Shown: positions 4,282 to 45,588, counted from the first letter of the stretch. The stretch is DNA of 64,000 nt from Candidatus Fervidifonticultor secundus (GCA_031459385.1 JAVKIP010000008.1:89064-153063), one strand, 5' to 3'. Notes: a model not told the origin generated them from the sequence alone. Made by a program: numbers and translations.

Positions 4282-4284
4282 AGC

Positions 4285-8419: not shown

Positions 8420-8462
8420 GGTCCGTGCGCCGGCAACAGCACAGGAAGGCGGAGGGATCAGC

Positions 8463-8963
8463 GTGACGGACAAGCCATTCGAGGTCGTCGCTGAGATCGC
8501 CCTGCAGGGCCTGCCGACCAGCAGCGATATCGCGCGCATCGACGACGCCGTGGAGCGCGCGCGGCGGAGCGCCCCCGCGGTGGTGCGTGCCACGCTGAGT
8601 CCGCCGGCGCGCTTCCGCGACGGCGGCTACTGCCTGGAGGCCCGGTTCGTGGCGTGGGCGGCCGACGGCCCCGCCGCCCAGGCGGCAGTGGAGGCTCTCT
8701 TGCGCGCCGCTGGCGTGACGGCCCGTACGGTGTACCTCTCCGGCCGGGCGCTCGCGGCTGCGGACGTCCCGCCTCCTGCGGCGCCCGCGGGTGCGGGCGC
8801 TGGCCGCGCGGCCGCGCGCCGGCCCGCTGCGCCGGCGCGCCGGCGGGGCGCGCGGACGGCCGCCAGGCCCCGCGACGCCACACCCCGTGGTCGCGCGGCC
8901 AGGCCGGCGCGGGGGGCGGCGAAAGGCGGAAGGGGCGCGCGCGGGGGCGGCCGGGGACGCTAG
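8463..8963 (+). CDS. Hypothetical protein: small alpha/beta domain plus Arg/Ala/Gly-rich basic tail
   Basis: GTG after GGAGGG; natural-looking domain of about 95 aa, then a low-complexity tail ending KGGRGARGGGRGR. Confidence 0.6.
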   Translation: MTDKPFEVVAEIALQGLPTSSDIARIDDAVERARRSAPAVVRATLSPPARFRDGGYCLEARFVAWAADGPAAQAAVEALLRAAGVTARTVYLSGRALAAADVPPPAAPAGAGAGRAAARRPAAPARRRGARTAARPRDATPRGRAARPARGAAKGGRGARGGGRGR

Positions 8964-12289: not shown

Positions 12290-12378
12290 GCCGTCCTGCT
12301 CCTTCCCCGCCGCCTCGTAGGCCGAAGGATGAGCCGCGCGCGAACGCGGCGGTGCCGGCGCCGCGCGTGCACTCCATT

Positions 12379-12387
12379 ACTATACCA
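12379..12387 (-). promoter_or_regulatory. Extended -10 promoter (TGGTATAGT) for the pdh operon
   Basis: AT-rich TGnTATAGT about 90 nt upstream of pdhA in GC-rich context. Confidence 0.55.
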
Positions 12388-12470
12388 GATCCGCGCAACC
12401 GGTCGGCACGCGCTATTTGCGCCCGGGCCGCCCGCCGGGTAGGCTAGAGGCGGCGCCGAAGGGAGCCCGC

Positions 12471-19542: not shown

Positions 19543-21552
19543 CTGACGAGACGCCCTATCGCTCGCCATCTCGCCGTCGCGGTGCTCACCCTGCTGGGCG
19601 CGTCGGTGGGCATCTTCGGCCTGGTCCACCTGGCACCGTTCGACCCCGCGCGGTACTTCGTGCAGTTCCGACAGGGCTATCGGGAAGAGCAGATCCGGCA
19701 GGTCCGGCAGTGGTACGGGCTCGACGATCCCGTGCCCGTGCAGTACGCGCGCTGGCTGGGCCGCGTCGCGACCGGTGATTTTGGCCGCTCGGTGTCCAAC
19801 GGGCGCGAGATCGGGCCCGAGGTCTGGCGCCGCCTGCCGTGGACGCTGCTGCTCCTCCTGGTGGGGTGGGGGCTCGCGGTGCCCGGTGCGGTGATCCTGG
19901 CGGTCGCGGGCGCGCGAGGCGGCCCCGGCGGTCGGGCGGCGCGCGCCGCGGTCACCGGGGCGCTGCTCGCACCGGTCTTCCTGCTGGCCAGCGTGCTGGT
20001 CTACGTCTTCGCCGTCCGGCTGGCGTGGATTCCTATCCTGCCGCCGTTCGAGCTGCGCCCGCACGACCCCGCGCTGTGGCGGTCGGCGCTCCTGCCTGGA
20101 GTGAGCCTGGCCGTGCCCCTGGCCGCCCTGGCCGCGCGCCGGCTGGCGGCGGGGCTGCCAGCGGCGCTGGCGGCCCCCCACGCGCTGGTCGCGCGGGCGC
20201 GCGGCGCGCCCGAGGCGCTCGTGCGGCGGCGCGCCCTGCGGGTGGCTGCGGCGGCGGCGCTCACACCGGCCCTGCCGCTCGCGGTGGCCTCGCTGAACGT
20301 ACTGCTCGTCGTCGAGGAAGTGTTCGGCTGGCCCGGCCTGGGCCGGGTCTTCGTGCGGGCCGTGGCGCAGCGCGACATCACGGCCGTGCAGGCCACGCTC
20401 TTCGTGCTCGTCGCGGTGGGGCTGGCCGCAGAGGTAGTGCTGCGCCAGGTTGCGGCGTGGCTCGGGGGGCAGGACGCGGACGCCAGCGCGGCGCGCGCGG
20501 CCTTCCGGCACGCCGGCGGGAGCGCTCGGTCGCCTGCAGACCGCCCGGTGCCCCTGCCGGCGCTAGACCGTATCGCGCTTGTGGGCGCGGCGGCGCTGGG
20601 TGCCGTCGTCGTCGCCGCGCTGGCGGCGCCGGTGATCGCGCGCTTCCCCCCAGACCAGGTCCTCCTGGAGGAGATCCAGTTGCCCCCGTCGCTGCGCCAC
20701 TGGATGGGCACGGACCCTTCCGGCCGTGACCTCTTCAGCCGGCTGCTGTACGCTGGCCGGGTCACGCTCGCGCTGGCGGCGCTGCCGGCGGCGGTGGCGG
20801 TGGCCGGGGCGGTGGTCCTCGCGGCCCTGGCGCAGTGGCAGGGGCCAGCGTGGGGAGATGCCCTCCTGGGCGCCACCCGCACGCTGGGCGCGTTTCCGCC
20901 AATTGCCCTGGCCATGGCCGTCGTGATCGTCGTGGGCCGTGCGCCCGCGGCCCTGGGCGCGGTGATGGTCCTCTGGGGCCTGGCCGAGTGTGCGGATCGG
21001 ATCGCGGGCATGGTGGCGCGGGCCCGCGCCTGGCCGTTCGCCCAGGCCAGCATCGCGCTCGGCGCGCCGACGGGACGGGTCGTGGAGCGGCATCTGGTGC
21101 CCCACCTCCTGCGGCCGCTGGCCGCTGAGGCGCTCGGCCTGGTCCCCGGCTTCCTGCTCCTGGAGGCGACGCTCGGCTTCTTCGGCTTCAGCCTGAGCCC
21201 CACGGTGCCCACGTGGGGCACGCTGCTGTGGCGTGGCCGGGAAGCGCTGCACCGCGGCGACTGGTGGCTGCTGGCGTTTCCGGTGGCGTTTGCGCTGGCC
21301 GCGGCGTGGGGTTGCCTGCACCTCGCCGGGGCGCTCCGCACGCCCGGGGGCCCCACGTTCGTCAGGGCGGCCCGGCCGGCTCCGGGCCGCGAGTGGGCGC
21401 CGGTTCCCGCCCGCCCGGCCGCCCGCCAGGCGGCGCGCCAGGCGACCCGCGCCCGGGCAGGGCCGGCTGTCACGCCGGTACCGGCAGTCAGCGACCCTGC
21501 GGCACCGTCGCCCCTGCCCGGCAGCGGGGCTAGCGGCGGCGCTTCCGGGTGA
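19543..21552 (+). CDS. Fused DppB/OppB-DppC/OppC ABC transporter permease
   Basis: N-half GLDDPVPVQYARWL, GDFGRS, EEVFGWPGLG; C-half HWMGTDPSGRDLFSR, EATLGFFG, PTWG. Probable CTG start at 19543 after GGGAGG; first canonical GTG at 19582. Confidence 0.85.
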   Translation: MTRRPIARHLAVAVLTLLGASVGIFGLVHLAPFDPARYFVQFRQGYREEQIRQVRQWYGLDDPVPVQYARWLGRVATGDFGRSVSNGREIGPEVWRRLPWTLLLLLVGWGLAVPGAVILAVAGARGGPGGRAARAAVTGALLAPVFLLASVLVYVFAVRLAWIPILPPFELRPHDPALWRSALLPGVSLAVPLAALAARRLAAGLPAALAAPHALVARARGAPEALVRRRALRVAAAAALTPALPLAVASLNVLLVVEEVFGWPGLGRVFVRAVAQRDITAVQATLFVLVAVGLAAEVVLRQVAAWLGGQDADASAARAAFRHAGGSARSPADRPVPLPALDRIALVGAAALGAVVVAALAAPVIARFPPDQVLLEEIQLPPSLRHWMGTDPSGRDLFSRLLYAGRVTLALAALPAAVAVAGAVVLAALAQWQGPAWGDALLGATRTLGAFPPIALAMAVVIVVGRAPAALGAVMVLWGLAECADRIAGMVARARAWPFAQASIALGAPTGRVVERHLVPHLLRPLAAEALGLVPGFLLLEATLGFFGFSLSPTVPTWGTLLWRGREALHRGDWWLLAFPVAFALAAAWGCLHLAGALRTPGGPTFVRAARPAPGREWAPVPARPAARQAARQATRARAGPAVTPVPAVSDPAAPSPLPGSGASGGASG

Positions 21553-22498
21553 GCGCCCGCCGCGCGGCGCCGGCGATCTCGGCGGCAGTCAGCCCGTATT
21601 TCTCCATGAGCGCCCGCGGCGAGCCCGACTCGCCGAAGACATCGCGGATGCCCACGCGCTCGACCGGCACCGGCTCGTGGGCACTCGTGACCTCGGCCAC
21701 CGCCCCGCCCAGCCCGCCGTAGATCGTGTGCTCCTCGGCGGTGACGATGGCGCCGGTCTCCCGCGCGGCCTCGAGGACGGCGGTCTCGTCCAGTGGCTTG
21801 AGCGTGGCCATGTTGAGCACGCGGGCCCCGATGCCCTCGGCGGCCAGGGTCTCGGCCGCCGCCAGCGCCTCGGCCACCATGATGCCGCAGGCGATGAGGG
21901 TCACGTCCGTGCCGTCGCGCAGCCGGGCCGCGCGGCCGATGGCGAACGTGTAGGTCTCGTCGAACAGCACCGGCACCGCGGCACGCCCCAGGCGCACGTA
22001 GGCCGGTCCCCGGTGGTCGGCGAGGGCGGCGATGACCTGCTGCGTCTCGGTGGCGTCTGCGGGCACGATCACCGTCATGTTGGCCAGCGCCCGCATCATC
22101 GCCAGCTCCTCGATGGCCTGGGCGGTCATGCCGTCCTCGCCGACCGTGAGGCCGCCATGGGTGCTGACGAGCTTCACGTTCAGGTTGGGCTGCGCCACCA
22201 GCACGCGGATCTGGTCGTAGGCCCGGCCCGGCACGAAGACGGCGAACGAGCTGACGAAGGGGACCTTGCCGCACGTGGCCAGGCCCGCGGCCACGCCCAC
22301 CATGTTCTGCTCGGCGATGCCGCACTCGATGAAGCGGTCGGGGAACGCGGCCGCGAACGCCTCGAGCCGGGTTGAGTCGCGCAGGTCCCCTGTGAGGGCC
22401 ACGACCCGCGGGTCGCGCCGGCCCACGGCGACCAGCGCTTCGCCATACGCGTCCCGCGTGGCCTTCTGCCCGGCGGTCTGGCTCACGAGGCCCGCCAT
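21530..22498 (-). CDS. Transketolase, C-terminal subunit
   Basis: ATRDAYG, GIAEQNM, GEDGMTAQ, EEH. Confidence 0.92.
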   Translation of the reverse strand: MAGLVSQTAGQKATRDAYGEALVAVGRRDPRVVALTGDLRDSTRLEAFAAAFPDRFIECGIAEQNMVGVAAGLATCGKVPFVSSFAVFVPGRAYDQIRVLVAQPNLNVKLVSTHGGLTVGEDGMTAQAIEELAMMRALANMTVIVPADATETQQVIAALADHRGPAYVRLGRAAVPVLFDETYTFAIGRAARLRDGTDVTLIACGIMVAEALAAAETLAAEGIGARVLNMATLKPLDETAVLEAARETGAIVTAEEHTIYGGLGGAVAEVTSAHEPVPVERVGIRDVFGESGSPRALMEKYGLTAAEIAGAARRALTRKRRR

Positions 22499-22502
22499 CG
22501 CG

Positions 22503-23342
22503 TCAGCTCCCGGGCGCGGCGCCATCGAGCTCAGCCAGCGCCCGCGCCAGCTCGTCGTGGGTGAGCGCCTTGCCATGGAACCCCACGACCCCCTCAAGGA
22601 ACGAGACGCCCTTGCCCTTGATCGTCCGCGCGACGATCACCTGCGGCCGCCCGCGCACGGTCCGCGCCCGGTCCAGCGCCGCCACGATCGCGCCCAGGTC
22701 GTGCCCGTCGATCTCCTGCACGTCCCACGTGCAGGCCCGCCACTTGTCGCCCAGGGGATCGAGGCGGATGCGCTCCTCGGTGGGGCCGGTCTGCTGGAGG
22801 CCGTTCCGGTCGACGATGGCGGTCAGGTTGTCCAGCCCGTAGTGCGCCGCGAACATCGCGCCCTCCCACACCGCGCCTTCCTGGCACTCGCCGTCGCCCA
22901 GCATGGCGTAGACGCGGTAGGGGCGGCCGTCGCGCTTGCCGGCCAGGGCCATCCCGATGGCGGCCGAGAACCCCATGCCGAGCGAGCCGCTGGAGATCTC
23001 CACGCCGGGTGTCCGGGTCATGTCCGGGTGGCCCTGCAGGATGCTGTCGACCCGGCGCAGCGTCCACAGGTGCTCGGGCGCGAAGTAGCCGCAGGCCGCC
23101 AGCACCACGTACCAGGCCGGACACCCGTGCCCCTTGCTCAGCACGAACCGGTCGCGGTCGGGCCAGGTGGGGTTGTGCGGGTCGTGGCGCATGGTGTGGT
23201 AGTAGAGCACCGTCAGGATGTCGATGGCAGACAGCGAGCCGCCGGGGTGCCCGGAGCCCGCCGTGGTGATGACCTGCAAGATGGTCTTGCGGAACTCGCG
23301 CGCCCGCGCCTCCAGGGCGCACAGGGCTGCTGTGGACGTCAT
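22503..23342 (-). CDS. Transketolase, N-terminal subunit
   Basis: SGHPGGSLS, RDRFVLSKGH, GSLGMG, GDGECQEG. Confidence 0.93.
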   Translation of the reverse strand: MTSTAALCALEARAREFRKTILQVITTAGSGHPGGSLSAIDILTVLYYHTMRHDPHNPTWPDRDRFVLSKGHGCPAWYVVLAACGYFAPEHLWTLRRVDSILQGHPDMTRTPGVEISSGSLGMGFSAAIGMALAGKRDGRPYRVYAMLGDGECQEGAVWEGAMFAAHYGLDNLTAIVDRNGLQQTGPTEERIRLDPLGDKWRACTWDVQEIDGHDLGAIVAALDRARTVRGRPQVIVARTIKGKGVSFLEGVVGFHGKALTHDELARALAELDGAAPGS

Positions 23343-23381
23343 GGGATGGAATGCTCCCTCGGTGTGGTCGGCGCCTGCCGC

Positions 23382-23436
23382 CGGGGCTGCCCGGCCGGGG
23401 CGTGCGGATCACCGCCCGCCGCGGGGCTGCCCGGCC
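23382..23436. repeat. 15-bp direct repeat CGGGGCTGCCCGGCC, two copies 40 bp apart
   Basis: Copies at 23382-23396 and 23422-23436 in the divergent tkt/qor spacer. Confidence 0.6.
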
Positions 23437-34406: not shown

Positions 34407-35301
34407 TGGCGCCCGGCGCCCCGCGTGGCTGAAGGTCCGGCTGCCGGGCGGTCCCGACTACGCCGACCTGGTGGGCATCATGCGCACGCAGCAGATGCAC
34501 ACGGTCTGCGAGGAGGCCCGCTGCCCCAACATCGGCGAGTGCTGGGGGCGCCGGACCGCCACCTTCCTCATCCTGGGCAACGTCTGCACGCGGAACTGCG
34601 CCTACTGCGCCGTCGCCCACGGCCTGCCCACCGAGCTGGACCGCGCCGAGCCGGCCCGGCTGGCCGCCGCCGTGGCGGCCATGGGCCTGCGCCACGCCGT
34701 GGTCACCTCGGTGAACCGCGACGACCTGGCCGACGGCGGCGCGGCGATCTACGCCGAGACGATCCGGCAGATCCACCGGCGCGTGCCTGCGTGCACCGTC
34801 GAGGTGCTCGTTCCCGACTTCAAGGGCGATCCCGAGGCGCTGCGCACGGTACTGGAGGCCAACCCCGAGATCCTGGGGCACAACATCGAGGCGCCCCGGC
34901 GCATCTTCGCCGTCGTGCGCGCCGGCGGCGATTACGACCGGTCCCTGACCCTGCTCCGCCGCGCCAAGGAGTGGGGCTACACCTCGTTCACCAAGAGCAG
35001 CATCATCCTGGGCATGGGCGAGACGCCCGACGAGGTCCTGGAGACGATGGACGACCTGCGCGCCGTGGACGTCGACGTCCTGACGTTGGGCCAGTACCTG
35101 CGCCCTGGCCCGGGCTACCACCCCATCGACCGCTACTACACCCCCGAGGAGTTTGCGTGGCTGAAAGACGAGGGGCTGCGGCGGGGGTTCCGCTACGTCG
35201 AAGCCGGCCCGCTGGTGCGGTCGTCGTACCGGGCCGACGTGCAGGCCCAGGCCGTGCGGGCGTACCGCGCGCGCCTGGGGGCGGTGTCGGCGGCCGATTG
35301 A
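34396..35301 (+). CDS. lipA: Lipoyl synthase
   Basis: CEEARCPNIGEC, CTRNCAYC, RSSY. Confidence 0.97.
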   Translation: MPGDGARRPAWLKVRLPGGPDYADLVGIMRTQQMHTVCEEARCPNIGECWGRRTATFLILGNVCTRNCAYCAVAHGLPTELDRAEPARLAAAVAAMGLRHAVVTSVNRDDLADGGAAIYAETIRQIHRRVPACTVEVLVPDFKGDPEALRTVLEANPEILGHNIEAPRRIFAVVRAGGDYDRSLTLLRRAKEWGYTSFTKSSIILGMGETPDEVLETMDDLRAVDVDVLTLGQYLRPGPGYHPIDRYYTPEEFAWLKDEGLRRGFRYVEAGPLVRSSYRADVQAQAVRAYRARLGAVSAAD

Positions 35302-35331
35302 CGCGGACGGGCCGCAGCAGGGCCCGCGCCG

Positions 35332-36363
35332 CTAGCGCCGCTGCCGGGCCAGTTCTTTCTCCTTCTTCTCCATGATGGCGGAGGAGTGCCCGGGGAACGC
35401 CGACGCGTGCGGGTCGAGGTAGGTCGCCGCGTTGTTCACCGCCGTGGCCGCCTCGCCGAACCCGGTGACGATCAGCTTCAGCTTGCCCGGGAACGTGGCG
35501 ATGTCGCCGGCCGCGTAGACCCCCGGCAGGTTGGTCTCCATCTTGGTGTTGACCGCGATCGCGTCGCCCTCCAGCTGCAGCCCCCACTGCGCGATGGGCC
35601 CCAGGTTGGAGACCAGGCCCAGGAACGCCAGCACGGCGTCCACCCGCAGCACTTCCTCCTGCCCGGTCCGGTTGTTGACGATGACGGCCTCCTCGACGTG
35701 CGGGTCGCCCCGCAACGCCCGCAGCTCGTAGAACACCTTGACGGTGATGGGCGACTCGAACAGCTTCTTCACGCTGTCGACGTGGGCGCGGAAGCCGTCG
35801 CGGCGGTGGATCAGCGTGATGGCCCGGGCGTAGGGCAGGAGGTTCAGCGCCCAGTCCAGCGCCGAGTCGCCGCCGCCCACCACCAGCAGGGTCTTGTCGC
35901 GGAACTCCTCCTTCCGCCGCACGGCGAAGAAGAGGCCGCGGCCCTCGTACCGGTCGAGCTCGGGCCGCTTGTAGGTCTTGGGCGTGAAGGCGCCGATGCC
36001 CGCGGTGATGATCACCACGCGGCTGTGGTGCCGGGCGTGCGCGGTGCCGAGCTCGATCACCCCGTCGGCCCGGTGCGCCAGCGTCTGGACCTCTTCGCTC
36101 AGGCAGACGGTGGGCTCGTACTGCATCGCCTGCTCCACCAGGTTGGCGACCAGCTCCTTGCCCAGGATCTTGGGGAAGCCCGCCACGTCGTAGATGTACT
36201 TGTCCGGGTAGAGGGCAGTGATCTGCCCGCCCAGGTCGGGCTGGCTGTCGATGAGCTTGGTGCGGAATCCGCGGAACCCGGCGTAGTACGCCGCGAACAG
36301 GCCCGTCGGCCCGGCGCCGATAATGGTGACGTCGTAGAGATCCTGGGCCTGTGCCTCGTCCAT
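35332..36363 (-). CDS. Ferredoxin-NADP+ reductase (TrxR-like, YumC type)
   Basis: GAGPTG, GGQITALYPDKYIYDVAG, GGGDSALDW, HRR, PGKLKLI..G.GEA; no CxxC. Confidence 0.9.
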   Translation of the reverse strand: MDEAQAQDLYDVTIIGAGPTGLFAAYYAGFRGFRTKLIDSQPDLGGQITALYPDKYIYDVAGFPKILGKELVANLVEQAMQYEPTVCLSEEVQTLAHRADGVIELGTAHARHHSRVVIITAGIGAFTPKTYKRPELDRYEGRGLFFAVRRKEEFRDKTLLVVGGGDSALDWALNLLPYARAITLIHRRDGFRAHVDSVKKLFESPITVKVFYELRALRGDPHVEEAVIVNNRTGQEEVLRVDAVLAFLGLVSNLGPIAQWGLQLEGDAIAVNTKMETNLPGVYAAGDIATFPGKLKLIVTGFGEAATAVNNAATYLDPHASAFPGHSSAIMEKKEKELARQRR

Positions 36364-36515
36364 GAACGCCTCCGCGGTCCGCCCGGTCGGGTGGACAGCC
36401 ACCCTCCAGCGTGACCGTGCCCCATTGTACCCGTTTCTTGACACGAATTCCCACCCGTGCCAGTGTTAGGAATAATCAAGGCGCACGGCATCGTCTGGAG
36501 GTGTGGGGGAGAGGG

Positions 36516-37697
36516 ATGGCGGTCCAGACACAGCGCGGCACCGCGCCGCTGTTGAGCAAGGAGCAGCTGACTCGCTACTCGCGGCAGATCATCCTCGAGG
36601 AGCTGGGGGTGGCGGGGCAGCGCAGGCTGCTGGAGAGCAGGGTGTTGGTCGTCGGGGCCGGCGGACTGGGCTCGCCGGCCTCGCTCTACCTGGCCGCGGC
36701 CGGCGTGGGGACGCTGGGTATCGTCGACGGCGACCGGGTGGACCTCTCGAACCTGCACCGGCAGATCATTCACTTCACGCACGACATCGGCCGGCCCAAG
36801 ACGCAGTCGGCCCAGCGGACCCTGGAGGCCGTCAACCCCGACGTCACGGTCGTCCCCCACCAGACGACGCTGACGTCCGAGAACGCCCTGGAGATCATCC
36901 GCGACTACGACGTGGTCGTCAACGGCAGCGACAACTTCCCCACCCGCTACCTGGTCAACGATGCGTGCGTCCTGCTGCGCAAACCCCTGGTGGACGCCAG
37001 CATCCTCAAGTGGGAGGGCCAGGCCACGGTCTTCCTGCCGGGACAGGGATGCTACCGGTGCCTGTTCCCGACGCCGCCGCCGCCGGGGTCCGTGCCCTCG
37101 TGCGCCGAGGGGGGGATCGTCGGCGCCGTGGCCGGCTACATGGGCACGCTGCAGGCCATCGAGGCCGTCAAGATCCTGCTGGGCGTTGGCGAGACCCTGG
37201 CCAACCGGCTGCTGCTCTTCGACGCCCTGCAGGGCGAGGTCCGCACGCTCCGGTGGACCCGGAACCCCGCCTGCCCGGCCTGCGGCGACCATCCCACGAT
37301 CACCGCGCTCATCGACTACGAGCAGTTCTGCGGGCTGCCGGGCCGTCAGCACGCGTCGGCGGTCCAGGAGGCCGGCCCACCGGCCGTGGATCCCGACGAA
37401 GCGTCGCGCCTGCTGGCGCAGGGCGCGCAGCTCATCGACGTGCGCGAGCCCTGGGAGTGGGCCATGGTGCGCATCCCGGGCGCCGTGCTGATCCCCATGG
37501 CCGAGGTTTCCCAGCGCACGTCCGAGATCGACCCTAACCGGCCGGTGGTCGTGCAGTGCGCGACGGGCGCGCGCAGCGCGAAAGTGACCGAACTGCTGCG
37601 CCAGGCTGGCTACGCCCAGGCGTACAACCTGGCCGGCGGCATCGTGGAGTGGCAGAACCGGCAGCTGCCCGTGGAGGTCGGGGACGGCCGCCGGTAG
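36516..37697 (+). CDS. moeB: MoeB/ThiF adenylyltransferase fused to a rhodanese domain (MoeZ/MoeBR)
   Basis: RYSRQI, GAGGLG, SNLHRQ, CYRC, CPAC; C-terminal DVREP..CATGARS..NLAGG. Confidence 0.93.
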   Translation: MAVQTQRGTAPLLSKEQLTRYSRQIILEELGVAGQRRLLESRVLVVGAGGLGSPASLYLAAAGVGTLGIVDGDRVDLSNLHRQIIHFTHDIGRPKTQSAQRTLEAVNPDVTVVPHQTTLTSENALEIIRDYDVVVNGSDNFPTRYLVNDACVLLRKPLVDASILKWEGQATVFLPGQGCYRCLFPTPPPPGSVPSCAEGGIVGAVAGYMGTLQAIEAVKILLGVGETLANRLLLFDALQGEVRTLRWTRNPACPACGDHPTITALIDYEQFCGLPGRQHASAVQEAGPPAVDPDEASRLLAQGAQLIDVREPWEWAMVRIPGAVLIPMAEVSQRTSEIDPNRPVVVQCATGARSAKVTELLRQAGYAQAYNLAGGIVEWQNRQLPVEVGDGRR

Positions 37698-37752
37698 CGC
37701 GTCGGGGCCCGGCGGTGGTGCACGCCGTCGCCCCACCGGACCCGAGGCTCCC

Positions 37753-38787
37753 TTGATACGGCAGGCGATCCTGCGGGGGCCGCGAACACTGGACCTGGCG
37801 GAGGTGCCCCCGCCTGCGCCCGGGCCCGGCGAGGTCGTGGTGCGGGTGCGCGCGGCGCTTACCTGCGGGACCGACCTGAAGACTTTCCGGCGAGGCCACC
37901 CCCGCCTGCCGTTCGGGCCGTTCGGCCACGAGGCGGCCGGCGACGTGGAGACGGTGGGCGCGGGTGTGCGTCACGTGGCGCCCGGGCAGGCCGTGGTCTT
38001 CACGCCCACGGCCCCGTGCGGCGCCTGCGCCGCGTGCGGTCGCGGCCGGGAGAATCTCTGCGCGCACCTCTTCGATGCCATCGCCCTCGGCGCGTATGCC
38101 GACGCGATTCGGCTGCCGGCCCGGGTGGCCGCGCGGCACCTGTTCCCCAAGCCCGACGGGCTGGATTACGCCGAGGCCGCCTGCCTGGAGCCGCTGGCGT
38201 GCGTCGTGCACGGCTGGCGCCGCCTCGGCGCGACCCGCGGCGCGGTGGCCGTGGTGGGGCTCGGTCCCATAGGCCTGCTGTTCGTGCAGCTGGCAGCGGG
38301 CCAGGGGCTCGAGGTCGTGGCGGTCGGCCGCCGGCCGGAGGGACTGGCGCGCGCCCGCGCCTGCGGCGCCGCGCACACGGTCGACGCGGCTGCGGTGGCC
38401 GACGTGGGGGCGGCGCTGCGCGCGCTCGGGCGCCCAGACGGGCCGGAGGCGGTGATCGAGGCCACCGGCGCCCAGGTCGTGTGGGAAGCGGCCCCGGGCT
38501 GGGCGGCGCCTGGCGGCCGCGTGCTGCTCTTCGGCGGCCTGGCTGGCGGCAGCCGGCCGGCGTTCGACGCCGCACGCCTGCACTACAGCGAGGTGGACCT
38601 GATCAGCGCCTTCCACTACACGACCGCCGACGTGCACGAGGCGCTGGGTCTGCTGGCTGCACGCGCGATCCGCCCTGGCCTCCTGATTGCGGGGGCGCGG
38701 CCCCTGAGCAGGGTTCGCGAGATCTTCGACGACCTGGATCGCGGCGCGGGGGTGAAGTACGCCGTGATCCCCGACGGCGCGCCGTGA
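37753..38787 (+). CDS. Zn-dependent MDR polyol-type dehydrogenase 1 (NADP(H)-type signature)
   Basis: CGTD, GHE, structural CGACAAC..C, EPLAC, GLGPIG, VGRR at the end of beta-B; TTG start. Confidence 0.88.
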   Translation: MIRQAILRGPRTLDLAEVPPPAPGPGEVVVRVRAALTCGTDLKTFRRGHPRLPFGPFGHEAAGDVETVGAGVRHVAPGQAVVFTPTAPCGACAACGRGRENLCAHLFDAIALGAYADAIRLPARVAARHLFPKPDGLDYAEAACLEPLACVVHGWRRLGATRGAVAVVGLGPIGLLFVQLAAGQGLEVVAVGRRPEGLARARACGAAHTVDAAAVADVGAALRALGRPDGPEAVIEATGAQVVWEAAPGWAAPGGRVLLFGGLAGGSRPAFDAARLHYSEVDLISAFHYTTADVHEALGLLAARAIRPGLLIAGARPLSRVREIFDDLDRGAGVKYAVIPDGAP

Positions 38788-39815
38788 GGGCGACGCGGCC
38801 CGGCACGACGCAGGCTGTGGTCTGGCATGCCCCGGGCGACCTGCGCCTGGAAGACCTGCCGCTGCCGGCGCTGGGTCCCGGCGACGCGTTGCTGCGGATC
38901 ACGGCGTGCGGGCTGTGTCCGGGCGAGACGATGGACTGGTACATGGCCCGCAGGGCGCCGGCTGTGCTCGGGCACGAGGCCGTGGGCGTGGTGGTGGAGA
39001 CCGGTCCCGGCGCGGCGTGCGCGCCGGGCACCCGCCTGTTCGTGCACCACCATGCGCCGTGCCTGGTCTGCGCTGCGTGCCGGCGGGGCGCGCACGTGCA
39101 CTGCGCCGCGTGGCGGGCGCGCCGCCTGCTGCCCGGCGGCCTGGCCACCTACGCGGTGGCGCGAGCGGACGCCGTCGCCACGGACGCGCACGTCCTGCCC
39201 GCAGACCTCGATGACGAGACCGCCACGTTCATCGAACCTCTGGCGTGCGTGGTGAAGTCCCTGCGGCGCGCGCGCATGCGGCCGGGTGACCGCGTGCTGG
39301 TGCTGGGCCTGGGTGTGATGGGTCTGCTGCACCTGCTGGTAGCGCGCCGGCTCGGCCCCGCCGTGTTGATCGGCGCTGACCGCCTGGCCAGCCGCGCCGA
39401 GACCGCCCGGCCGCTCGCCGACGTGGTGGTCGATGCCAGCCGGGACGTCCTGCCCGATGCGGTGCGTGCGGCGACCGGCGATGGGGCCGACGTCGTGATC
39501 GTCGGGCCCGGCTCGGTGGAGGCGCTGGACGCCGGCGTGGCCTGTGCGGCGCCAGGCGCCACCGTGCTGCTCTTCACCCCGACGCCGCCCGAGGTGCGCT
39601 GGGCGCTGGCGCCGCACGATCTCTTCTTCAGAGAGATCAGCCTCGTGGCCAGCTACTCGGCTGGACCCGACGAGACCCGCGAGGCGGTGCGGCTCCTGGC
39701 GGCCGGGCTGCCGGTCCAGGGACTCATCACGCACCGCCTGGCGCTGGCGGATGCCGCGCGGGGCTACGCGCTGCTCCGCAGTGCGGCGGCGCTCAAGGTG
39801 GTGGTACGGCCGTGA
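38784..39815 (+). CDS. Zn-dependent MDR polyol-type dehydrogenase 2 (NAD(H)-type signature)
   Basis: CGLC, GHE, HHHAPCLVCAAC..HC, EPLAC, GLGVMG, IGADR; GTGA overlap with the previous gene. Confidence 0.88.
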   Translation: MRATRPGTTQAVVWHAPGDLRLEDLPLPALGPGDALLRITACGLCPGETMDWYMARRAPAVLGHEAVGVVVETGPGAACAPGTRLFVHHHAPCLVCAACRRGAHVHCAAWRARRLLPGGLATYAVARADAVATDAHVLPADLDDETATFIEPLACVVKSLRRARMRPGDRVLVLGLGVMGLLHLLVARRLGPAVLIGADRLASRAETARPLADVVVDASRDVLPDAVRAATGDGADVVIVGPGSVEALDAGVACAAPGATVLLFTPTPPEVRWALAPHDLFFREISLVASYSAGPDETREAVRLLAAGLPVQGLITHRLALADAARGYALLRSAAALKVVVRP

Positions 39816-40339
39816 CGCGGGCGCTCCGCGTGGGCAGCGCGTGCGAGGTGCCGTTCGTGGTGGCGGCGCGGCCGGGGGTGGCGCGCTTCGACCCGCGCAC
39901 CTTCCGCTGGCAGGGCGTCCCCGCCGCGGCCTACAAGGAGCAGACGGCCGGGCCGCTGGCCTGGCGGGGCGTGGAGCGGTTCGTGCTCATGGGGGGGCCG
40001 CAGGCGAAGGCGGCGTTCGAACTGCGCTACTTCGAGATCGCCCCCGGCGGGTACTCGTCGTGGGAACGGCACGCCCACGCCCATGCCATCGTCGTGGTGC
40101 GCGGACGTGGCCGCGTGCGCCTGGGGCGGCGCGTGGTCCGCGTGCGGCCGCTCGACTTCCTCTTCATCCCCGCCGGCACCCCGCACCAGTTTCGCGCCGA
40201 CGGCGAGCCGTTCGGCTTCCTCTGCCCCGTGGACGCGGTGCGCGACGCCCCGCGTCCGGCGGCGCGCTTGCGCGCCCTGCGCCGCCGGGCTACAATGCGG
40301 AGGAGAGCGGGAAGCCCCAGGGCCGGGAGGCGCGCATGA
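39812..40339 (+). CDS. Cupin resembling 1-methylthio-xylulose-5-P methylsulfurylase (Rru_A2000 type)
   Basis: FRWQGV....YKE, LRYFEIAPGG.S..ERHAHAH, HQFRA..EPFGFLC.V...RD.P; cupin identity is clear, the subfamily is from recalled motifs. Confidence 0.75.
   Translation: MTRALRVGSACEVPFVVAARPGVARFDPRTFRWQGVPAAAYKEQTAGPLAWRGVERFVLMGGPQAKAAFELRYFEIAPGGYSSWERHAHAHAIVVVRGRGRVRLGRRVVRVRPLDFLFIPAGTPHQFRADGEPFGFLCPVDAVRDAPRPAARLRALRRRATMRRRAGSPRAGRRA
40268..40296 (+). promoter_or_regulatory. Internal sigma70 promoter TTGCGC-N17-TACAAT for iscA-nfu
   Basis: Lies in the 3' end of the cupin gene, 40 nt upstream of the iscA ATG. Confidence 0.55.
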
Positions 40340-40707
40340 TCACCATTACGGCGCAGGCCGCCGAGAAACTCCACGAGCTCCTGCAGCAGCAGGGTGATCC
40401 GGAGGTACGGTTGCGCCTGTTCATCACCCGCGGCGGCTGCCACGGGTTCAGCTACGGGATGGCGTTCGACCGCGAGCGCCGGGCCGACGACCAGGTCGTG
40501 GCCCAGCACGGCGTCGAGGTGCTGGTGGATCCCGCAAGCCAGCGGCTCCTCGACGGCGCCCAGATCGACTACGTTCGGTCGATCGCGGGCGAGGGGTTCA
40601 CCGTCCGCAATCCCAACGCCGTCGAGACGTGCGGGTGCGGCCACTCGTTCCGGCATCGCGACGAGGCCGGCGAGCCCGATCCCTGCGACGACGCGTCGCA
40701 GAACTGA
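40336..40707 (+). CDS. iscA: A-type Fe-S carrier (IscA/SufA/ErpA, HesB family)
   Basis: GGCHGFSY, NPNAVETCGCGHSF. Confidence 0.92.
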   Translation: MITITAQAAEKLHELLQQQGDPEVRLRLFITRGGCHGFSYGMAFDRERRADDQVVAQHGVEVLVDPASQRLLDGAQIDYVRSIAGEGFTVRNPNAVETCGCGHSFRHRDEAGEPDPCDDASQN

Positions 40708-40724
40708 GCGCGAGGAGGCTGCGA

Positions 40725-40991
40725 ATGACCACCGGGGCTCAGGTGTCCGACCAGGACCAGACCCTGCGCGGGCGCGTCGAGCGGGTGCTGGACGCGATTC
40801 GTCCCTACGTGCAGGGCGACGGGGGCGATATCGAGCTGCTGGACATCACCGACGACGGGATCGTCCAGATCCGGCTGGCGGGCGCATGCGTCGGGTGCAT
40901 GTACTCCATGATGACGCTGCAGGCCGGGATCGAGCGCATGCTCAAACAGGAGATCCCGGAGCTGCGCGCCGTGGAGGCGGTGCCCTTCTAA
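40725..40991 (+). CDS. Nfu-type Fe-S carrier (NifU C-terminal domain)
   Basis: IRPYVQGDGGDIEL, GACVGC, TLQAGIE. Confidence 0.92.
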   Translation: MTTGAQVSDQDQTLRGRVERVLDAIRPYVQGDGGDIELLDITDDGIVQIRLAGACVGCMYSMMTLQAGIERMLKQEIPELRAVEAVPF

Positions 40992-41031
40992 CCCGTCGGG
41001 AGCAGGTGTCCGCTCGGGCCCCGAGGGCGTT

Positions 41032-41049
41032 GCCCCTGCGGGGCTTTTT
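41032..41049 (+). terminator. Intrinsic terminator after nfu
   Basis: GCCCC-TGC-GGGGC followed by TTTTT. Confidence 0.65.
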
Positions 41050-41076
41050 CGTCGGAGGCGGGTGGAGGATGGGAGC

Positions 41077-42570
41077 ATGAGCGCGGAGGAGGCGGGCAGC
41101 CGGGTCCCCACGGCACCGTCGTGGACCCGGATCCTCAAGAAGCTGGACGACTACCGGTGGGAGATTCCCACGAGCTACAAGCCGGGCATGCGCGTGCCGG
41201 GGCTGATCTTCGCCAGCGAGCGCATGATCCGGCAGATGGGCGAAGAGCAGGCCTTCGAGCAGGTGGCGAACGTGGCGACGCTGCCGGGCATCGTCGGCCG
41301 GTCGCTGGCGATGCCGGACGTGCACTGGGGGTACGGGTTCCCGGTGGGCGGCGTGGCGGCGTTCGACGAGGACGACGGCGTGATCTCGCCCGGCGGGGTC
41401 GGCTACGACATCAACTGCGGCGTGCGCCTGATCCGCACCGACCTCACCGAAGCCGACGTGCGTCCGCGTCTGGAAGACCTGGTGGCCACGCTCTTCCGCG
41501 CGGTGCCCTCCGGCGTCGGCGTGGGCGGGAAGGTCAGGGTCAGCATGCAGGAGATCGACGACGTGCTGGCCCGCGGCGCCCGGTGGGCGGTGGCGAAGGG
41601 CTACGGGACCCCCGACGACCTGGAGGTCATCGAGGCCGGGGGCGCGCTGGCCCAGGCCGACCCGGCGCAGGTCAGCACCGAGGCCAAGCAGCGGGGCCGC
41701 GGGCAGATCGGGACGCTGGGCTCGGGCAACCACTTCCTCGAAGTGCAGGTGCTGGATCAGGTCTTCGACGCCGCGGCCGCCCGGGTGATGGGCCTGGAGG
41801 AGCCCGGCCAGATCGTGATCTTCATCCATTCGGGATCGCGGGGGTTGGGGCATCAGGTCTGCACCGACTACCTGCGGGTGGCCGAACGGGCGAACCGGCA
41901 GTATGGCATCCACCTGGTGGACCGGCAGCTGGCGTGTGTGCCGCTGCGGTCGCCCGAGGGACAGCGGTACTTCGGCGCGATGTGCGCCGCCGCCAACTTC
42001 GCGTGGGCCAACCGCCAGTTGATGACGCACTGGGTGCGCGAGAGTTTCCAGCAGGTCTTCGGGAAGTCGTGGGAGGCCCTGGGGATCCGGCTGGTCTACG
42101 ACGTGGCCCACAACATCGCCAAGATGGAAGAGTACGAGGTGGACGGCCACCGCCGGCGCGTCTGCGTACACCGCAAGGGCGCCACGCGCGCGTTCCCGCC
42201 GGGCCACCCTGAGGTGCCGCCGCGCTACCGGGCCATCGGCCAGCCGGTGCTCATCCCCGGCGACATGGGCCGGTATTCGTTTGTCCTGGTGGGCGCGCCG
42301 GGCGCCATGCAGGAGGCGTTCGGGTCCACCTGCCACGGGGCAGGGCGCGTGCTGGGCCGCAAAGCCGCCGTCCGCCAGCTCGCGGGCCGCAACATCGCCG
42401 ACGAGCTGCGGCGGCAGGGGATCATCGTGCGGGCGCAGGATCCCCACCTGCTGGCCGAAGAGGCCTCCGCGGCCTACAAGGACGTCGCCGATGTGGTGGC
42501 GGTTTGCCATGCGGCCGGGCTGAGCCGCCGGGTGGCGCGCCTGCGGCCCATCGGGGTCATCAAAGGGTAG
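41077..42570 (+). CDS. rtcB: RNA ligase RtcB (long, archaeal/eukaryote-like type)
   Basis: [48 protein letters not shown]. Confidence 0.96.
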
Positions 42571-42580: not shown

Positions 42581-43750
42581 GTGCGCGCGTCCCCTTCGAG
42601 CCTCGCCGCCGACGAGCAGCGCCTCATCGCGCAGACCGTGCGCGCCTTCGCGCGGGAGGTGCTGCGCCCGCAGGCCGCGGCGTGGGACCGCGAGGGGCGC
42701 TTTCCGACCGAACTCGTCCCGCAGCTGGCGGAGCTGGGGCTGCTGGGGATGGTGGTGCCGGTGGCATACGGCGGGGCGGGGCTCGACCTCACCGCGGTCA
42801 TCGCCGCCATCGAGGCGCTGGCCTGGGGCGATGCCGGCGTGGCGCTGTCGGTGGCCGCCCACAACTCGCTGTGCTGCGGGCACCTGGTGCTGCACGCCAG
42901 CGAGGCACAGAAGCGCCGCTACCTGCCGGCCCTGGCCACTGGCGCGATGCTCGGCTCGTGGTGCCTGACCGAGCCGGCGGCGGGCAGCGACGCGGCCGGC
43001 ATCCAGACCCGTGCGCGGCGGGTGGGCGAGCGCTGGGTGCTGAACGGGACCAAGGTGTTCGTCACCAACGGCAGCCTGGCGGGTCTCTACGTGGTGATGG
43101 CCGTCACCGATCCGGGCGGCGGGCGCAGGGGCATCAGCGCCTTCATCGTGGAGCGCCAGACGCCCGGGCTGGAGGTCGGCCGCACGGAGGACAAGCTCGG
43201 CGTGCGCAGCAGCGACACCGCGGAGGTGCGGTTCGCCGACTGTGCCCTGCCCGCCGAGGCCCTCATCGGAACAGAAGGCGACGGCTACCGGCAGGCCATG
43301 GAAGTGCTGGACCGCGGGCGCATCGGCATCGCGGCGCTGGCCGTGGGGCTGGGCCGGGCGGCGCTGGACGCCAGCCTGGCGTACGCGACGCAGCGCAGGG
43401 CGTACGGGAAACCCATCGCGGAGCTGCAGGCGATCCAGTTCATGCTGGCCGACATGGCCACCGAGCTCGACGCCGCCTGGCTCCTGACCGAGCACGCCGC
43501 GGCGCTGGCCGACCGCGGCGAGCCGCACCGCGTCGAGGCGTCGATGGCCAAGCTCTTCGCCTCGGAGGCCGCCGCCCGCGCCACCGCCCGCGCCGTGCAG
43601 ATCCACGGGGGGTACGGGTTGACCAGGGACTACCCGGTGGAGCGCTTCTACCGCGACGTGAAGCTCACCGAGATCGGTGAGGGCACCAGCGAGGTGCAGC
43701 GGGCCATCATCGGCCGCGAGGTGCTGCGCCGCCTGGGAGGCAGGGCGTGA
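42581..43750 (+). CDS. Acyl-CoA dehydrogenase
   Basis: [34 protein letters not shown]. Confidence 0.93.
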
Positions 43751-45588
43751 CGTCGCCGTTCGCGGCGCGGCTGGCCCGGGGGCCTCTGCTGGCAGACGGC
43801 GCCATGGGCACGATGCTGTACGCGCGCGGCGTGCCCGTCGATCAGTGCTTCGAGGCGGTCAACCTCAGCGATCCTGCCCTGGTCACCGGAATCCACCGGG
43901 CGTACCTCGACGCGGGCGCCGAGCTGCTGGAGACCAACACGTTCGGCGCCAACCGGCTGAAGCTCACCGCCTATGGGCTCGCCGACCGCGCCGCCGAGAT
44001 CAACGCGGCCGGCGTCGCCATCGCGCGCGCGGCCGCGCAGGCAGCAGGCCGGCAGGTCTGGGTCGCAGGGTCGATCGGTCCGCTGGGCCGCTCACTGGCG
44101 CCTATCGGCACCGTGACGGTCGAGGAGGCGGCCGAGGTCTTCGGCGCGCAGGCGCGGGCCCTGGCCGGTGCCGGTGCCGACGTGCTGGTGCTGGAGACGT
44201 TCGCCGACCTCCGGGAGCTGGAGACGGCGGTACGCGCGGCGCAGGCCGCCACTGCCCTTCCCATCATCGCAGAGATGACGTTCGGGCCCGATAGCCGGAC
44301 GCTGCTGGGACATCGGCCGGAGGAGATCGTGGCCCGGCTGGAACCGCTGGGCGTGGCTGCCATCGGCGCCAACTGCAGCGTCGGGCCCTACGGCATCGTG
44401 GAGGTGCTGGAGCGCATGGCGGCCGTGGCCAGCACGCCGCTGGTGGCGATGCCCAATGCGGGCCTGCCCACCATCGTCGGCGGGCGGCTGGCCTATGTGG
44501 CGTCCCCGGCCTACATGGCCGAGCACGCGCGGGCGCTGGTGGACCTGGGCGTGGCGATCGTCGGCGGCTGCTGCGGGACCACGCCCGAGCATATCGCGGC
44601 GATGCGCGCGGCGATCAGTGGCCGCCCGCCCGGCCCCCGGGCCCGGACCACCGCGCGCGCGGCCGCCCCGCCGCCTCCTGCGCCACCGCCGGCGCCGCAG
44701 GGTTCGCTGGCGCAGAAGATCGGGAAGCGCTTCGTGATCACGGTGGAGGTGACGCCGCCGCGGGGGGCCTACGACGCCGAGGCCCTCGAGCACTGCCGGC
44801 GGCTGCGCGCCGTGGGTGTGGACGCCATCGACGTGGCCGACAACCCCATGGCCCGCCTGCGCATGAGCCCCTGGGCCATGGCGGCGCGCATCGAGCGCGA
44901 GGTCGGGGTCGAGACGATCCTCCACTTCACGACGCGCGACCGCAACCTGGTCCGCCTCCAGTCGGACCTGCTGGCCGTGCACGCGCTGGGCATCCGGACG
45001 ATCCTGGTCCTGCGGGGCGACCTGCCACAGACCGGCGACTACCCGCGCGCCACCGCCGTGGCCGACGTCCATCCCTCGGGCCTGGTGCGCCTCGTCAAGG
45101 GCTTCAACAGCGGTCAGGACGTCGCCGGCAACCCGATCGGCACGCCGACGAGCTTCCTGGTCGGGGTCGCGCTCAACATGGCCGCGCGCGATCCGGACCG
45201 GGAGTTGCGGGCGCTGGAGCGCAAGCTGGCCGCGGGCGCCGACTTCGTCTGCACCATGCCCATCTTCGAGCTCGCCACCCTCGACCGGTTCCTGGCCCGC
45301 GTGGGGCAGCTGCCAGTGCCGATGCTGGTGGGCGTGCTGCCGCTGCACAGCGCCCGGCACGCCGAGTTCCTCCACAACGAGCTGCCGGGCATGGTCGTGC
45401 CCGACGCGGTCCGGGCGCTCATGCGGCAGACGCGGGACGGGCGCGAGGCCGGTCTCCGCCTGGCGCGCGAGCTGCTGGCCGCACTGCGCACCCGCGTGGC
45501 GGGCGTCTACCTGGTGCCGTCGTTCGGCCGCTACGACCGCGTGGTAGACCTGGTGGCCGAGGTGCGGGCGGCGTCGCCGGCCCGGTAG
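43747..45588 (+). CDS. yitJ: Bifunctional homocysteine S-methyltransferase / methylenetetrahydrofolate reductase
   Basis: DGAMGT, TNTFGAN, GANC, GGCCGT; MTHFR half RDRN, AEFLHNE.PG. Confidence 0.92.

Follow-up and report, generated by a model that had tools for sequence, protein, structure and literature searches.

Two zinc-dependent dehydrogenases and a cupin as a probable RuBisCO-like-protein-independent form of the MTA-isoprenoid shunt

Three overlapping genes of Candidatus Fervidifonticultor secundus probably allow a by-product of SAM use to be converted to DXP, a precursor of isoprenoids, with no need of a RuBisCO-like enzyme. They are located in a window of 64,000 nucleotides (the whole stretch of DNA that was analysed; all positions are counted from its first letter) and encode two Zn-dependent medium-chain dehydrogenases/reductases, MDR1 and MDR2, and a cupin. 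In Rhodospirillum rubrum and Rhodopseudomonas palustris, the MTA-isoprenoid shunt, as described in PMC5893883, runs from MtnP and MtnA through a RuBisCO-like protein (RLP) of the DeepYkr type, which acts as a 1,3-isomerase, to the cupin methylsulfurylase Rru_A2000 or RPA2170. We consider it rather likely that the module described here is an RLP-independent form of this shunt, of which no published description was found in the literature.

The module occupies the plus strand. MDR1 (positions 37753..38787, 344 amino acids) starts with TTG, with the sequence GAGG five bases 5' of the start, and is followed by MDR2 (38784..39815, 343 amino acids) and the cupin (39812..40339, 175 amino acids), both of which start with GTG. 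Both junctions are GTGA overlaps between plus-strand reading frames, so that the translational coupling of the three genes claimed in an earlier note on this DNA stands. A fourth coupled gene, absent from the earlier note's list and encoding an A-type Fe-S carrier of the ErpA type (40336..40707, plus strand; PF01521, and 122.6 bits against NF010147 with a cut-off of 117), overlaps the cupin stop as ATGA. Of 15 collinear loci in relatives, 11 have it 3' of the cupin; this placement is conserved in this lineage only, and no pathway role is claimed for it. On the 3' side of this gene, a hairpin with a T tail (41032..41054, plus strand) likely marks the end of the operon; it is the sole terminator-like site between 35000 and 41300, a number not above chance, because shuffled sequence averages 1.3 such sites. 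A promoter scan revealed no promoter-like site between the upstream MoeZ gene and MDR1. Among 20 loci in relatives, 15 preserve the trio collinearly, with identities as low as about 55%, while the MoeZ-like and thioredoxin-reductase-like genes upstream are not counted as parts, since they are conserved beside the module inside the lineage only. In metatranscriptomes, one run contains a 237-base contig identical to positions 39298-39534, which may be DNA carry-over, and no contig spanning the three genes was found.

The cupin is a member of the Rru_A2000 family, the 1-methylthio-D-xylulose-5-P methylsulfurylase type. Among 38 solved structures that match it, the best is 3jzv (E 1.2e-29), followed by the family structures 3ibm (E 4.9e-27) and 3kgz (E 6.3e-26), with the first cupin structure from outside the family at E 9.5e-6. 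The likeness to Rru_A2000 pointed out in the earlier note is real. The predicted model (pLDDT 84.8) retrieves 3kgz, 3jzv and 3ibm at Foldseek ranks 1 to 3. In an alignment of 50 family sequences, the protein contains all 10 invariant residues (R72, Y73, F74, E85, H87, H89, H91, G98, H125 and R144), to some of which we presumptively assign a catalytic role, and all 15 near-invariant ones. The cysteine of the GFLC motif, C138, is conserved in at least 90% of these sequences and is present, as is the histidine cluster, and the segments RYFE, E-x-H-x-H-x-H, the second histidine of HQF, GFLC and RD-x-P align with Rru_A2000. The motifs listed in the earlier note are present, although two of its spacings were miscounted: four residues, not two, separate FRWQGV from YKE, and three, not two, separate GFLCPV from RD. 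On a quick tree, which is built from 135 columns and poorly resolved (40 of its 94 branches are open), the window's cupin interleaves with RLP-linked and RLP-fused members, which places it inside the Rru_A2000 clade, and MDR-linked and RLP-linked cupins share the same family-invariant residues.

Both dehydrogenases are made up of ADH_N and ADH_zinc_N domains (Pfam) and share 34% identity across 304 residues. Among solved structures they are nearest to polyol dehydrogenases of the sorbitol, threonine and ketose-reductase types, in keeping with the first description of the pair as paralogous Zn polyol-type enzymes. Neither scores over the NCBIfam curated cut-off of a named equivalog (threonine, sorbitol, galactitol-1-P or idonate dehydrogenase, among others), MDR1 reaching at most 106.6 bits (cut-off 376) and MDR2 at most 112 (cut-off 450). 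The columns of the catalytic and structural Zn ligands are kept in 25 MDR1 and 44 MDR2 orthologues; in MDR1 these are C38, H59/E60, E146 and the four structural-Zn cysteines. MDR1 orthologues carry the signature CGTD[LV]KxF[RL]RGHP, and at the end of strand beta-2 in 19 of the 25, G/S-R-R takes the place of an acidic residue, by which MDR1 is proposed to be an NADPH-type reductase. In the other six the site is of the NAD type, and the division into an NADPH and an NAD+ enzyme therefore does not hold throughout. In MDR2 the same position is Asp or Glu in all 44 orthologues, pointing to an NAD+-type dehydrogenase, and H88-H90 (an HHH motif), W52, Y53, R101 and R204 are invariant in 19 diverse orthologues.

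The gene structure, the family memberships, the pathway inventory and the neighbourhood pattern across phyla are all observed directly; for the following route we infer which substrates are used, in what order the two redox steps run, with which cofactors and through which intermediate, and what the cupin does. Genes outside the window encode MTA phosphorylase and MtnA, which would supply 5-methylthio-D-ribulose-1-P, the carbonyl of which the MDR pair would shift from C2 to C4 by redox, not by the enediol isomerisation of the RLP. MDR1, with a cofactor site of the NADP type in this lineage, would reduce C2 to give a 5-methylthio-pentitol-1-P, and MDR2, with an NAD-type site throughout, would oxidise C4 to give 1-methylthio-D-xylulose-5-P. 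With a thiol, the cupin would then strip the methylthio group, leaving DXP and a methanethiol equivalent, and DXP would enter Dxr and the remaining MEP pathway. The proposed reduction to a 5-methylthio-arabitol-1-P at C2, oxidation at C4 and order of NADPH before NAD+ are consistent with the residues at the cofactor sites. The earlier note had proposed such a redox route in place of the RLP. This reading is supported: the computational tests named against it, on the clade of the cupin, on mtnA, the MEP pathway and an RLP in the genome, and on the association of the MDR pair with mtn genes, all came out in its favour, the chemistry itself being what we infer.

The proposed logic has parallels. 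In yeasts, xylose reductase and xylitol dehydrogenase replace xylose isomerase, and there too a cofactor-free isomerase gives way to NADPH-linked reduction and then NAD+-linked oxidation at another carbon; in the yeast route, however, the first enzyme is an aldo-keto reductase, the substrates are unphosphorylated and the pathway is catabolic. A second parallel is the APDH of Enterococcus avium, an MDR catalysing the interconversion of arabitol phosphate with xylulose-5-P. As had been stated for D-arabitol-phosphate dehydrogenases, enzymes of this kind are on record, including AtlD of Bacillus methanolicus (PMC6685057); likened by reaction type, they are Zn-MDRs that take a pentitol phosphate to the xylulose-5-P skeleton, as proposed for MDR2, whereas the proposed substrate of MDR2 has a 5-methylthio (or 5-deoxy) group and MDR2 has an HHH motif of its own. 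With the shunt as given in PMC5893883, the module has in common the entry enzymes MTAP and MtnA, the cupin family with its invariant residues and the continuation through Dxr into the MEP pathway. It differs in that no RLP was found in the genome and two Zn-MDRs take its place beside the cupin, and, unlike the cofactor-free proton transfer of the RLP, the MDR step would consume and regenerate nicotinamide cofactors. DXS, the usual DXP synthase, is thiamine-dependent and uses pyruvate and glyceraldehyde-3-P; the proposed product, DXP for Dxr, is the same, but the MDR and cupin proteins are unrelated to DXS.

The genome contains the flanking pathways. Its assembly is rated 97.6% complete, and contig C57 carries, outside the window as the earlier note had stated, MTAP (TIGR01694, 305.8 bits against a cut-off of 274.85) and MtnA (TIGR00512, 425 bits against 279). 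Dxr (416.7 bits), IspG (412 bits) and IspH (279.8 bits) are all over their cut-offs, so that both mtnA and these three MEP enzymes are present. The same assembly gave no PF00016 match, and hence no RuBisCO-family gene that might already serve as an RLP isomerase, and HMG-CoA reductase was not found in it. No DXS reaches the TIGR00204 cut-off of 466; the best match, at 207 bits, belongs to a split transketolase, of which it is the C-terminal half. The possibility that these genes (window positions 21530-23408, minus strand) are a hidden DXS was rejected, and they are read as transketolase because both halves match NF004559, with 333 and 335 bits. Two PLP enzymes match the O-acetylhomoserine sulfhydrylase model TIGR01326 in two pieces each, which sum to about 357 bits in one enzyme and about 363 in the other, the cut-off being 495. 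Two class II aldolase homologues were considered as MtnB and rejected, with at most 69.9 bits against a 137-bit cut-off; their neighbours are unrelated (PRK02399-family and creatininase-family proteins; protocatechuate dioxygenase), and they could provide an alternative fate for methylthioribulose-1-P.

In a comparison of the 80 cupin loci closest to that of the window, 26 contain MDR1 and MDR2, 19 a single MDR2-like gene, 15 an RLP and 20 neither, nine of the last group having less than 2.5 kb of flank. None of these best 80 has both an MDR and an RLP beside the cupin, so that the two linkages are mutually exclusive in the 60 loci that have either, the anticorrelation that had been looked for. 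In genomes with a single linked MDR, an unlinked MDR1 orthologue is present in five of five. RuBisCO_large and Cupin_2 domains are fused in 22 of 28 long relatives scanned, and all six longer cupin relatives, from 8000 candidates scored, are RLP-cupin fusions; an MDR-cupin fusion is found neither among the 28 nor among these six. A RuBisCO-family match is absent from 23 of 25 MDR-type genomes, and one of the other two has a true RuBisCO (451 bits). Homologues of the MDR pair do associate with mtnA: four Solirubrobacterales loci have the order mtnA-MDR2-MDR1, and their mtnA genes score 358-373 bits (cut-off 279). In locus L225, from a DXS-less genome, the order is polyprenyl synthase, MDR1, squalene-hopene cyclase, Dxr and two squalene/phytoene synthases, while the radical SAM enzyme HpnH is encoded directly 5' of MDR2 in L072, L064, L189 and L195. 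Among metagenome loci anchored on MDR2, the cupin is present in 47 of 80 and absent nearby in 19 of 66 informative ones, including L145, where MDR1-MDR2-IscA is kept and the cupin slot is empty. The association of MDR and cupin extends over at least 10 phylum-level lineages, with Armatimonadota/Sysuimicrobiota, Bacillota, Actinomycetota, Binatota, Nitrospirota, Planctomycetota, Acidobacteriota, Gemmatimonadota, WOR-3 and Myxococcota in the record titles. The genes are collinear, convergent, divergent or unlinked but co-occurring, and other neighbours are not kept across phyla.

DXS is lacking in 12 of the 25 MDR-type genomes, all 12 of which have Dxr, and in two of 11 RLP-type genomes, both of which also lack Dxr. 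In a sample of 61 genomes from an acidobacterial class, 18 have the cupin only, 26 DXS only, none both and 17 neither. MDR1, with or without MDR2, adjoins the cupin in 10 of the 18 cupin genomes, the other eight having no MDR within about 7 kb of it, and in none of the 18 does an RLP adjoin the cupin. Related genomes are not independent, so these co-occurrence counts overstate the number of events.

Other readings of the module have to be weighed. Within the window's order the neighbourhood alone proves little, because the whole region of about 20 kb, from Lpd to Mrp, is syntenic throughout the lineage, and two unrelated alcohol or polyol dehydrogenases might by chance have been inherited next to the cupin, with no shared pathway. 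This is very improbable and is already contradicted by the cross-phylum and rearranged loci, in which the association outlasts rearrangement and recurs across the listed phyla without the other neighbours. The position of HpnH next to MDR2 in four loci and that of MDR1 between the polyprenyl synthase and the cyclase of L225 would fit a role of the dehydrogenases in tailoring a hopanoid side chain, for instance in the reduction of ribosylhopane to bacteriohopanetetrol, with the cupin as a side player. Adenosylhopane is, like MTA, a 5'-substituted 5'-deoxyadenosine, and we know of no reductase for the ribosylhopane step. Such a role leaves the alternation of RLP and MDR and the mtnA linkage unexplained, however, and in the window's lineage it is rejected: squalene-hopene cyclase was not found in the window's genome and was found in only three of 41 genomes of the order, against about 30 with the module. 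Taken overall, we give the hopanoid role hardly any probability.

It is more conceivable, if still unlikely, that MDR-linked cupins have drifted to another substrate and that the trio, unrelated to MTA and DXP, acts on a different sugar or polyol phosphate, for example in the catabolism of pentitols or in another thio-sugar pathway. The MDRs score below every equivalog cut-off, mtnA is linked in one lineage only, and in the available text of PMC5893883 only two cupin family members have experimental support, that of R. rubrum and, in vivo, that of R. palustris. Against this stand the shared invariant residues and the interleaving of MDR-linked and RLP-linked cupins on the tree, the position of MDR1 beside Dxr and hopanoid/isoprenoid genes and of MDR2 beside HpnH, the mutual exclusion of cupin and DXS in the acidobacterial genomes, and the lack of a conserved sugar transporter or kinase adjoining the module. 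A further alternative, also rather unlikely, keeps the product and changes the main substrate to 5-deoxy-D-ribulose-1-P, derived from the 5'-deoxyadenosine of radical SAM enzymes; by chemistry that we take to be identical, the same MDR pair would give DXP from it directly, and the cupin would be an accessory that rescues the methylthio analogue from MTA. Cupin-less MDR loci with enough flank do exist (six with the pair and 10 to 13 with a single MDR), as does L145 with its empty cupin slot, and HpnH adjoins MDR2 in four loci. To our knowledge, though, the HpnH reaction does not release 5'-deoxyadenosine, a link from 5-deoxyribulose-1-P to DXP was not found in the literature, and the cupin is found with MDR2 in 47 of 80 loci and with the MDR1-MDR2 pair in 15 of the 20 loci from relatives. 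This alternative extends the RLP-independent shunt more than it competes with it.

The RLP-independent shunt may account for the survival of many bacteria that lack the usual DXP synthase. According to a 2023 survey, 181 species have every MEP enzyme except Dxs, and 172 of them are left unexplained (PMC10663253). Its Supplementary Table S2 includes four species with the cupin and neither RLP nor Dxs, three Chloracidobacterium and Thermodesulfovibrio yellowstonii, in which the cupin is left without a known substrate source (PMC10663253). For both puzzles the MDR pair is a concrete candidate answer. Tentatively, and as a possibility that we do not favour in full, MDR1, MDR2 and the cupin would be the missing DXS substitute in a large share of DXS-less MEP bacteria, including these published cases, and all isoprenoid carbon there would come from the ribose of MTA and 5'-deoxyadenosine. 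If true, the module would be a second, non-homologous solution to a carbonyl transposition thought to require RLP, would show what two widespread, unannotated families of dehydrogenases do and would open a DXS-independent way into the MEP pathway for metabolic engineering. Where it is the sole source of DXP, SAM turnover would be stoichiometrically tied to isoprenoid supply.

In the window's own order, none of 41 genomes has a DXS over the cut-off, 37 have Dxr, 37 have mtnA and about 30 have the module. Six genomes (G026, G028, G030, G032, G035 and G039, of which G028 is rated 100% complete) contain neither an MDR2 orthologue nor the cupin nor DXS, and have both Dxr and mtnA. Because these module-less, DXS-less genomes keep Dxr, another DXP source must exist in the lineage, and the module cannot be the sole DXS substitute in the order. 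The neighbours of mtnA in the module-less relatives, a YggS-type protein, SepF and a family-2 glycosyltransferase, give no lead to a third route. An RLP (PF00016) is present in five of the 41 genomes, three of which (G020, G037 and G040) contain the module as well.

The window, with a G+C content of 71–78%, contains four forward-strand genes between positions 37753 and 40707, the end of each overlapping the start of the next. The first two encode paralogous zinc-type MDR dehydrogenases: MDR1 (37753–38787) starts at a TTG codon, with GAGG five bases upstream, and MDR2 (38784–39815) follows with a GTGA overlap. Another GTGA overlap leads into the cupin gene (39812–40339), and an ATGA overlap into the gene of an A-type Fe-S carrier of the ErpA type (40336–40707), which scores 122.6 bits against the ErpA model, above the cut-off of 117. 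Two Fe-S enzymes of the MEP pathway, IspG and IspH, are matured by ErpA in E. coli; by this analogy, the fourth gene would be a further thematic link to that pathway. A terminator-like hairpin is located 3′ of the fourth gene, at 41032, and is the sole such site in 35000–41300, with shuffled sequence yielding one too. All the evidence of transcription seen is one 237-base metatranscriptome contig. The same four genes (window 37738–41200) are found at about 90% identity on a subsurface metagenome contig of another study. A metagenome contig with the synteny of the lineage (L145, 1–2540) carries MDR1, MDR2 and the Fe-S carrier, with a cupin slot of only about 130 bases.

The best solved relative of the cupin is Rru_A2000 (3jzv, E 1.2e-29), then 3ibm and 3kgz, while the next cupin structure follows at E 9.5e-6. 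An alignment of 50 stand-alone relatives has ten invariant and fifteen near-invariant residues; the cupin of the window has every one, including the His cluster, the RYFE motif and the Cys of GFLC. The top structure matches of its predicted model (mean pLDDT 84.8) are again 3jzv, 3ibm and 3kgz. From the solved relative, the conserved residues and the model, the likeness to Rru_A2000 named in an earlier note on this DNA is right as a family assignment, with two spacers miscounted; the overlapping MDR1, MDR2 and cupin genes it described are present. A search of 1.84 billion representatives yielded 750 cupin relatives at E up to 0.001. A RuBisCO large-chain domain is fused to the cupin in 22 of 28 long relatives scanned and in all six longer relatives from a second protein collection; an MDR–cupin fusion was not seen. 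These fusions agree with the published pathway (PMC5893883, PMC6302742), in which 5-methylthioribulose-1-P is converted by a RuBisCO-like protein (RLP), acting as an isomerase, into 1-methylthioxylulose-5-P, from which the cupin frees DXP, using glutathione. Several relatives have an additional member of this cupin family that lies apart from every MDR gene (L039 9971–10381, L042 9991–10401, L040, L041 and L045).

Comparative genomics supports the interpretation of the earlier note, that the MDR pair supplies the cupin's substrate in the place of RLP. Judged from sequence, this is probably the case, and the module is then a known pathway, the RLP and cupin route to DXP, here in a new form with the MDR pair. 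Neighbours within 4.5 kb were sought in the 80 genome loci with the cupins most like that of the window (the best 80 of 593 confirmed, a sample that leans to the window's type), the queries being the proteins of the window itself and four RLP domains taken from the fusions. Orthologues of both MDR1 and MDR2 are neighbours of the cupin in 26 loci, one MDR2-like gene in 19, RLP in 15, and neither in 20, nine of which have a flank of less than 2.5 kb on one side; RLP and MDR occur together in none of the 80. Record titles place the MDR-linked loci in Armatimonadota/Sysuimicrobiota, Bacillota (Limnochordales), Actinomycetota, Binatota, Nitrospirota, Planctomycetota, Acidobacteriota, Gemmatimonadota, WOR-3 and Myxococcota. 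The module is collinear in the window, convergent in the loci of two relatives, head-to-head in Acidobacteriota and unlinked in others. All five single-MDR genomes have one clear MDR1 orthologue elsewhere, at 41–45% identity and with the common signature CGTDLKxFRRGHP; four of these score 224–244 bits to MDR1 versus 118–124 to MDR2, while for the fifth (in genome G064) the alignment falls into two pieces, scoring 165 and 99.8 bits, versus 103. RLP-linked and MDR-linked cupins are intermixed on a quickly built tree of poor resolution, with five changes of the RLP label, at least two of them forced by branches with an SH-aLRT of at least 95%. Whole-genome searches revealed no RuBisCO-family gene in 23 of the 25 genomes in which the cupin's partner is MDR; one of the other two has a true RuBisCO.

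The window's genome (3.30 Mb, 59 contigs, rated 97.6% complete) has MTAP, MtnA, Dxr, IspH and IspG above cut-off; no RuBisCO-family gene, HMG-CoA reductase or above-cut-off DXP synthase (DXS) was found in it. Its best DXS-like match, split N- and C-terminal transketolase genes on the reverse strand of the window (21530–23408), is false. The order was counted over 41 genomes, including that of the window and two unpublished ones (G010 and G019), on which alone no claim rests. DXS is above cut-off in none, Dxr and MtnA are each above cut-off in 37, a RuBisCO-family gene is present in 5, the cupin (E up to 1e-35) in 28 and MDR2 (E up to 1e-100) in 30. In 20 fetched loci of relatives, the trio of MDR1, MDR2 and cupin is collinear in 15 (one from G010) and convergent in two; the other three contain an additional cupin copy without the trio. 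RLP and the module are found together in three relatives. Six genomes of the order, one rated 100% complete, lack DXS, an MDR2 orthologue and the cupin yet possess Dxr and MtnA, which implies another source of DXP, so the module is not the sole substitute in the lineage. Isoprenoid and MEP genes go unmentioned in the main texts of two papers on Candidatus Sysuimicrobiota (CSP1-3).

DXS is missing from 12 of the 25 MDR-type genomes, all 12 with Dxr: four from the window's own order and eight from outside (two Limnochordales-type, one each titled Blastocatellia, Gemmatimonadota, Binatia, with a 4.9-Mb chromosome, and Deltaproteobacteria, and two vaguely titled bins). Two of 11 RLP-type genomes are without DXS, both without Dxr too. 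From the class to which the Blastocatellia record belongs, 61 acidobacterial genomes were evenly drawn: the cupin is present in 18, DXS in 26, both in none and neither in 17 (Fisher p 6e-6, which is too strong, since genomes that are related do not count as independent). The cupin is adjoined by MDR1, alone or together with MDR2, in ten of these 18 cupin-bearing genomes, and by RLP in none. PMC10663253 gives 181 species missing only Dxs, and its Table S2 has species with the cupin but without RLP and Dxs, a gap the module would fill. That many bacteria without DXS depend on the module as their only source of DXP is a tentative reading, which we consider rather doubtful. No description of an RLP-independent route was found in the literature searched, which most subscription journals lay outside.

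Gene order also links the MDRs to the substrate and to isoprenoid genes. In four Solirubrobacterales loci, mtnA, MDR2 and MDR1 lie on one strand with the cupin convergent, and each of the four mtnA genes scores above the cut-off of the MtnA equivalog model. In L225, a locus from a DXS-less genome, an operon-like row on the reverse strand (3676–12458) contains genes for a polyprenyl synthase, an MDR1 orthologue and a squalene-hopene cyclase, continuing with Dxr, two squalene/phytoene synthases and an amine oxidase. The gene directly upstream of an MDR2-like gene encodes HpnH, a hopanoid radical SAM enzyme, in L072 (4993–8390), L064 (5898–8438), L189 (4941–6996) and L195 (4952–6996); the cupin comes after the MDR2-like gene in the first two of these loci and was not found in L189 or L195. 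Hopanoid tailoring by the MDRs is rejected for the window's lineage, as squalene-hopene cyclase was found in only three of the 41 genomes of the order (and not in the window's genome); this rarity makes the hopanoid contexts speak for precursor supply. A cupin is also absent nearby in 19 of 66 informative MDR2-anchored metagenome loci, which keeps in view a cupin-independent product, with the MDR pair making DXP directly from 5-deoxyribulose-1-P. Spermine/spermidine synthases are an MTA-producing enzyme type, and in L217 a 715-residue protein with such a domain (8226–10373, reverse strand) adjoins a cupin-less MDR1–MDR2 pair.

For an MDR pair acting in place of RLP, the stereochemistry set out in the earlier note is correct as chemistry: reduction at C2 gives a D-arabino pentitol, and oxidation at C4 with renumbering gives the D-xylulose configuration. 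MDR1 and MDR2 both contain ADH_N and ADH_zinc_N domains and share 34% identity over 304 residues. The solved relatives of both are sorbitol, threonine and ketose-reductase-type enzymes, and neither meets the cut-off of any NCBIfam equivalog model. The end of beta-2 is Asp or Glu in all 44 MDR2 orthologues, the usual mark of NAD preference. In MDR1 it is G/S-R-R without an acidic residue in 19 of 25 orthologues, the usual mark of NADP preference, and Asp in six, mostly Solirubrobacterales-type. The cofactor sites would thus fit an NADPH-driven reduction followed by an NAD+ oxidation, a pattern that is not general. The MDR2 family (window 38784–39815, alignment A2) is marked by an invariant His-His-His immediately ahead of the structural-zinc loop and by further invariant residues W52, Y53, R101, R204, Y291 and S292, while the MDR1 family has the signatures CGTD[LV]KxF[RL]RGHP and, C-terminally, G[IV]KYAxIP; these conserved residues may be candidates for phosphate binding. 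MDR arabitol-phosphate dehydrogenases exist (PMC6685057).

Directly upstream of the module (35332–37697) are genes for a thioredoxin-reductase-like flavoprotein (reverse strand) and a MoeZ-type ThiF-rhodanese protein (forward strand), which flank it throughout the lineage and not in other phyla. The flavoprotein is of interest because a methylthio-glutathione reductase is suggested in PMC5893883. Four genes downstream of the module, a bifunctional homocysteine S-methyltransferase/methylenetetrahydrofolate reductase is encoded on the forward strand (43747–45588; NF006396, 684.6 bits); this gene is syntenic in most relatives, and locus L239 has a similar one immediately 5′ of the cupin.
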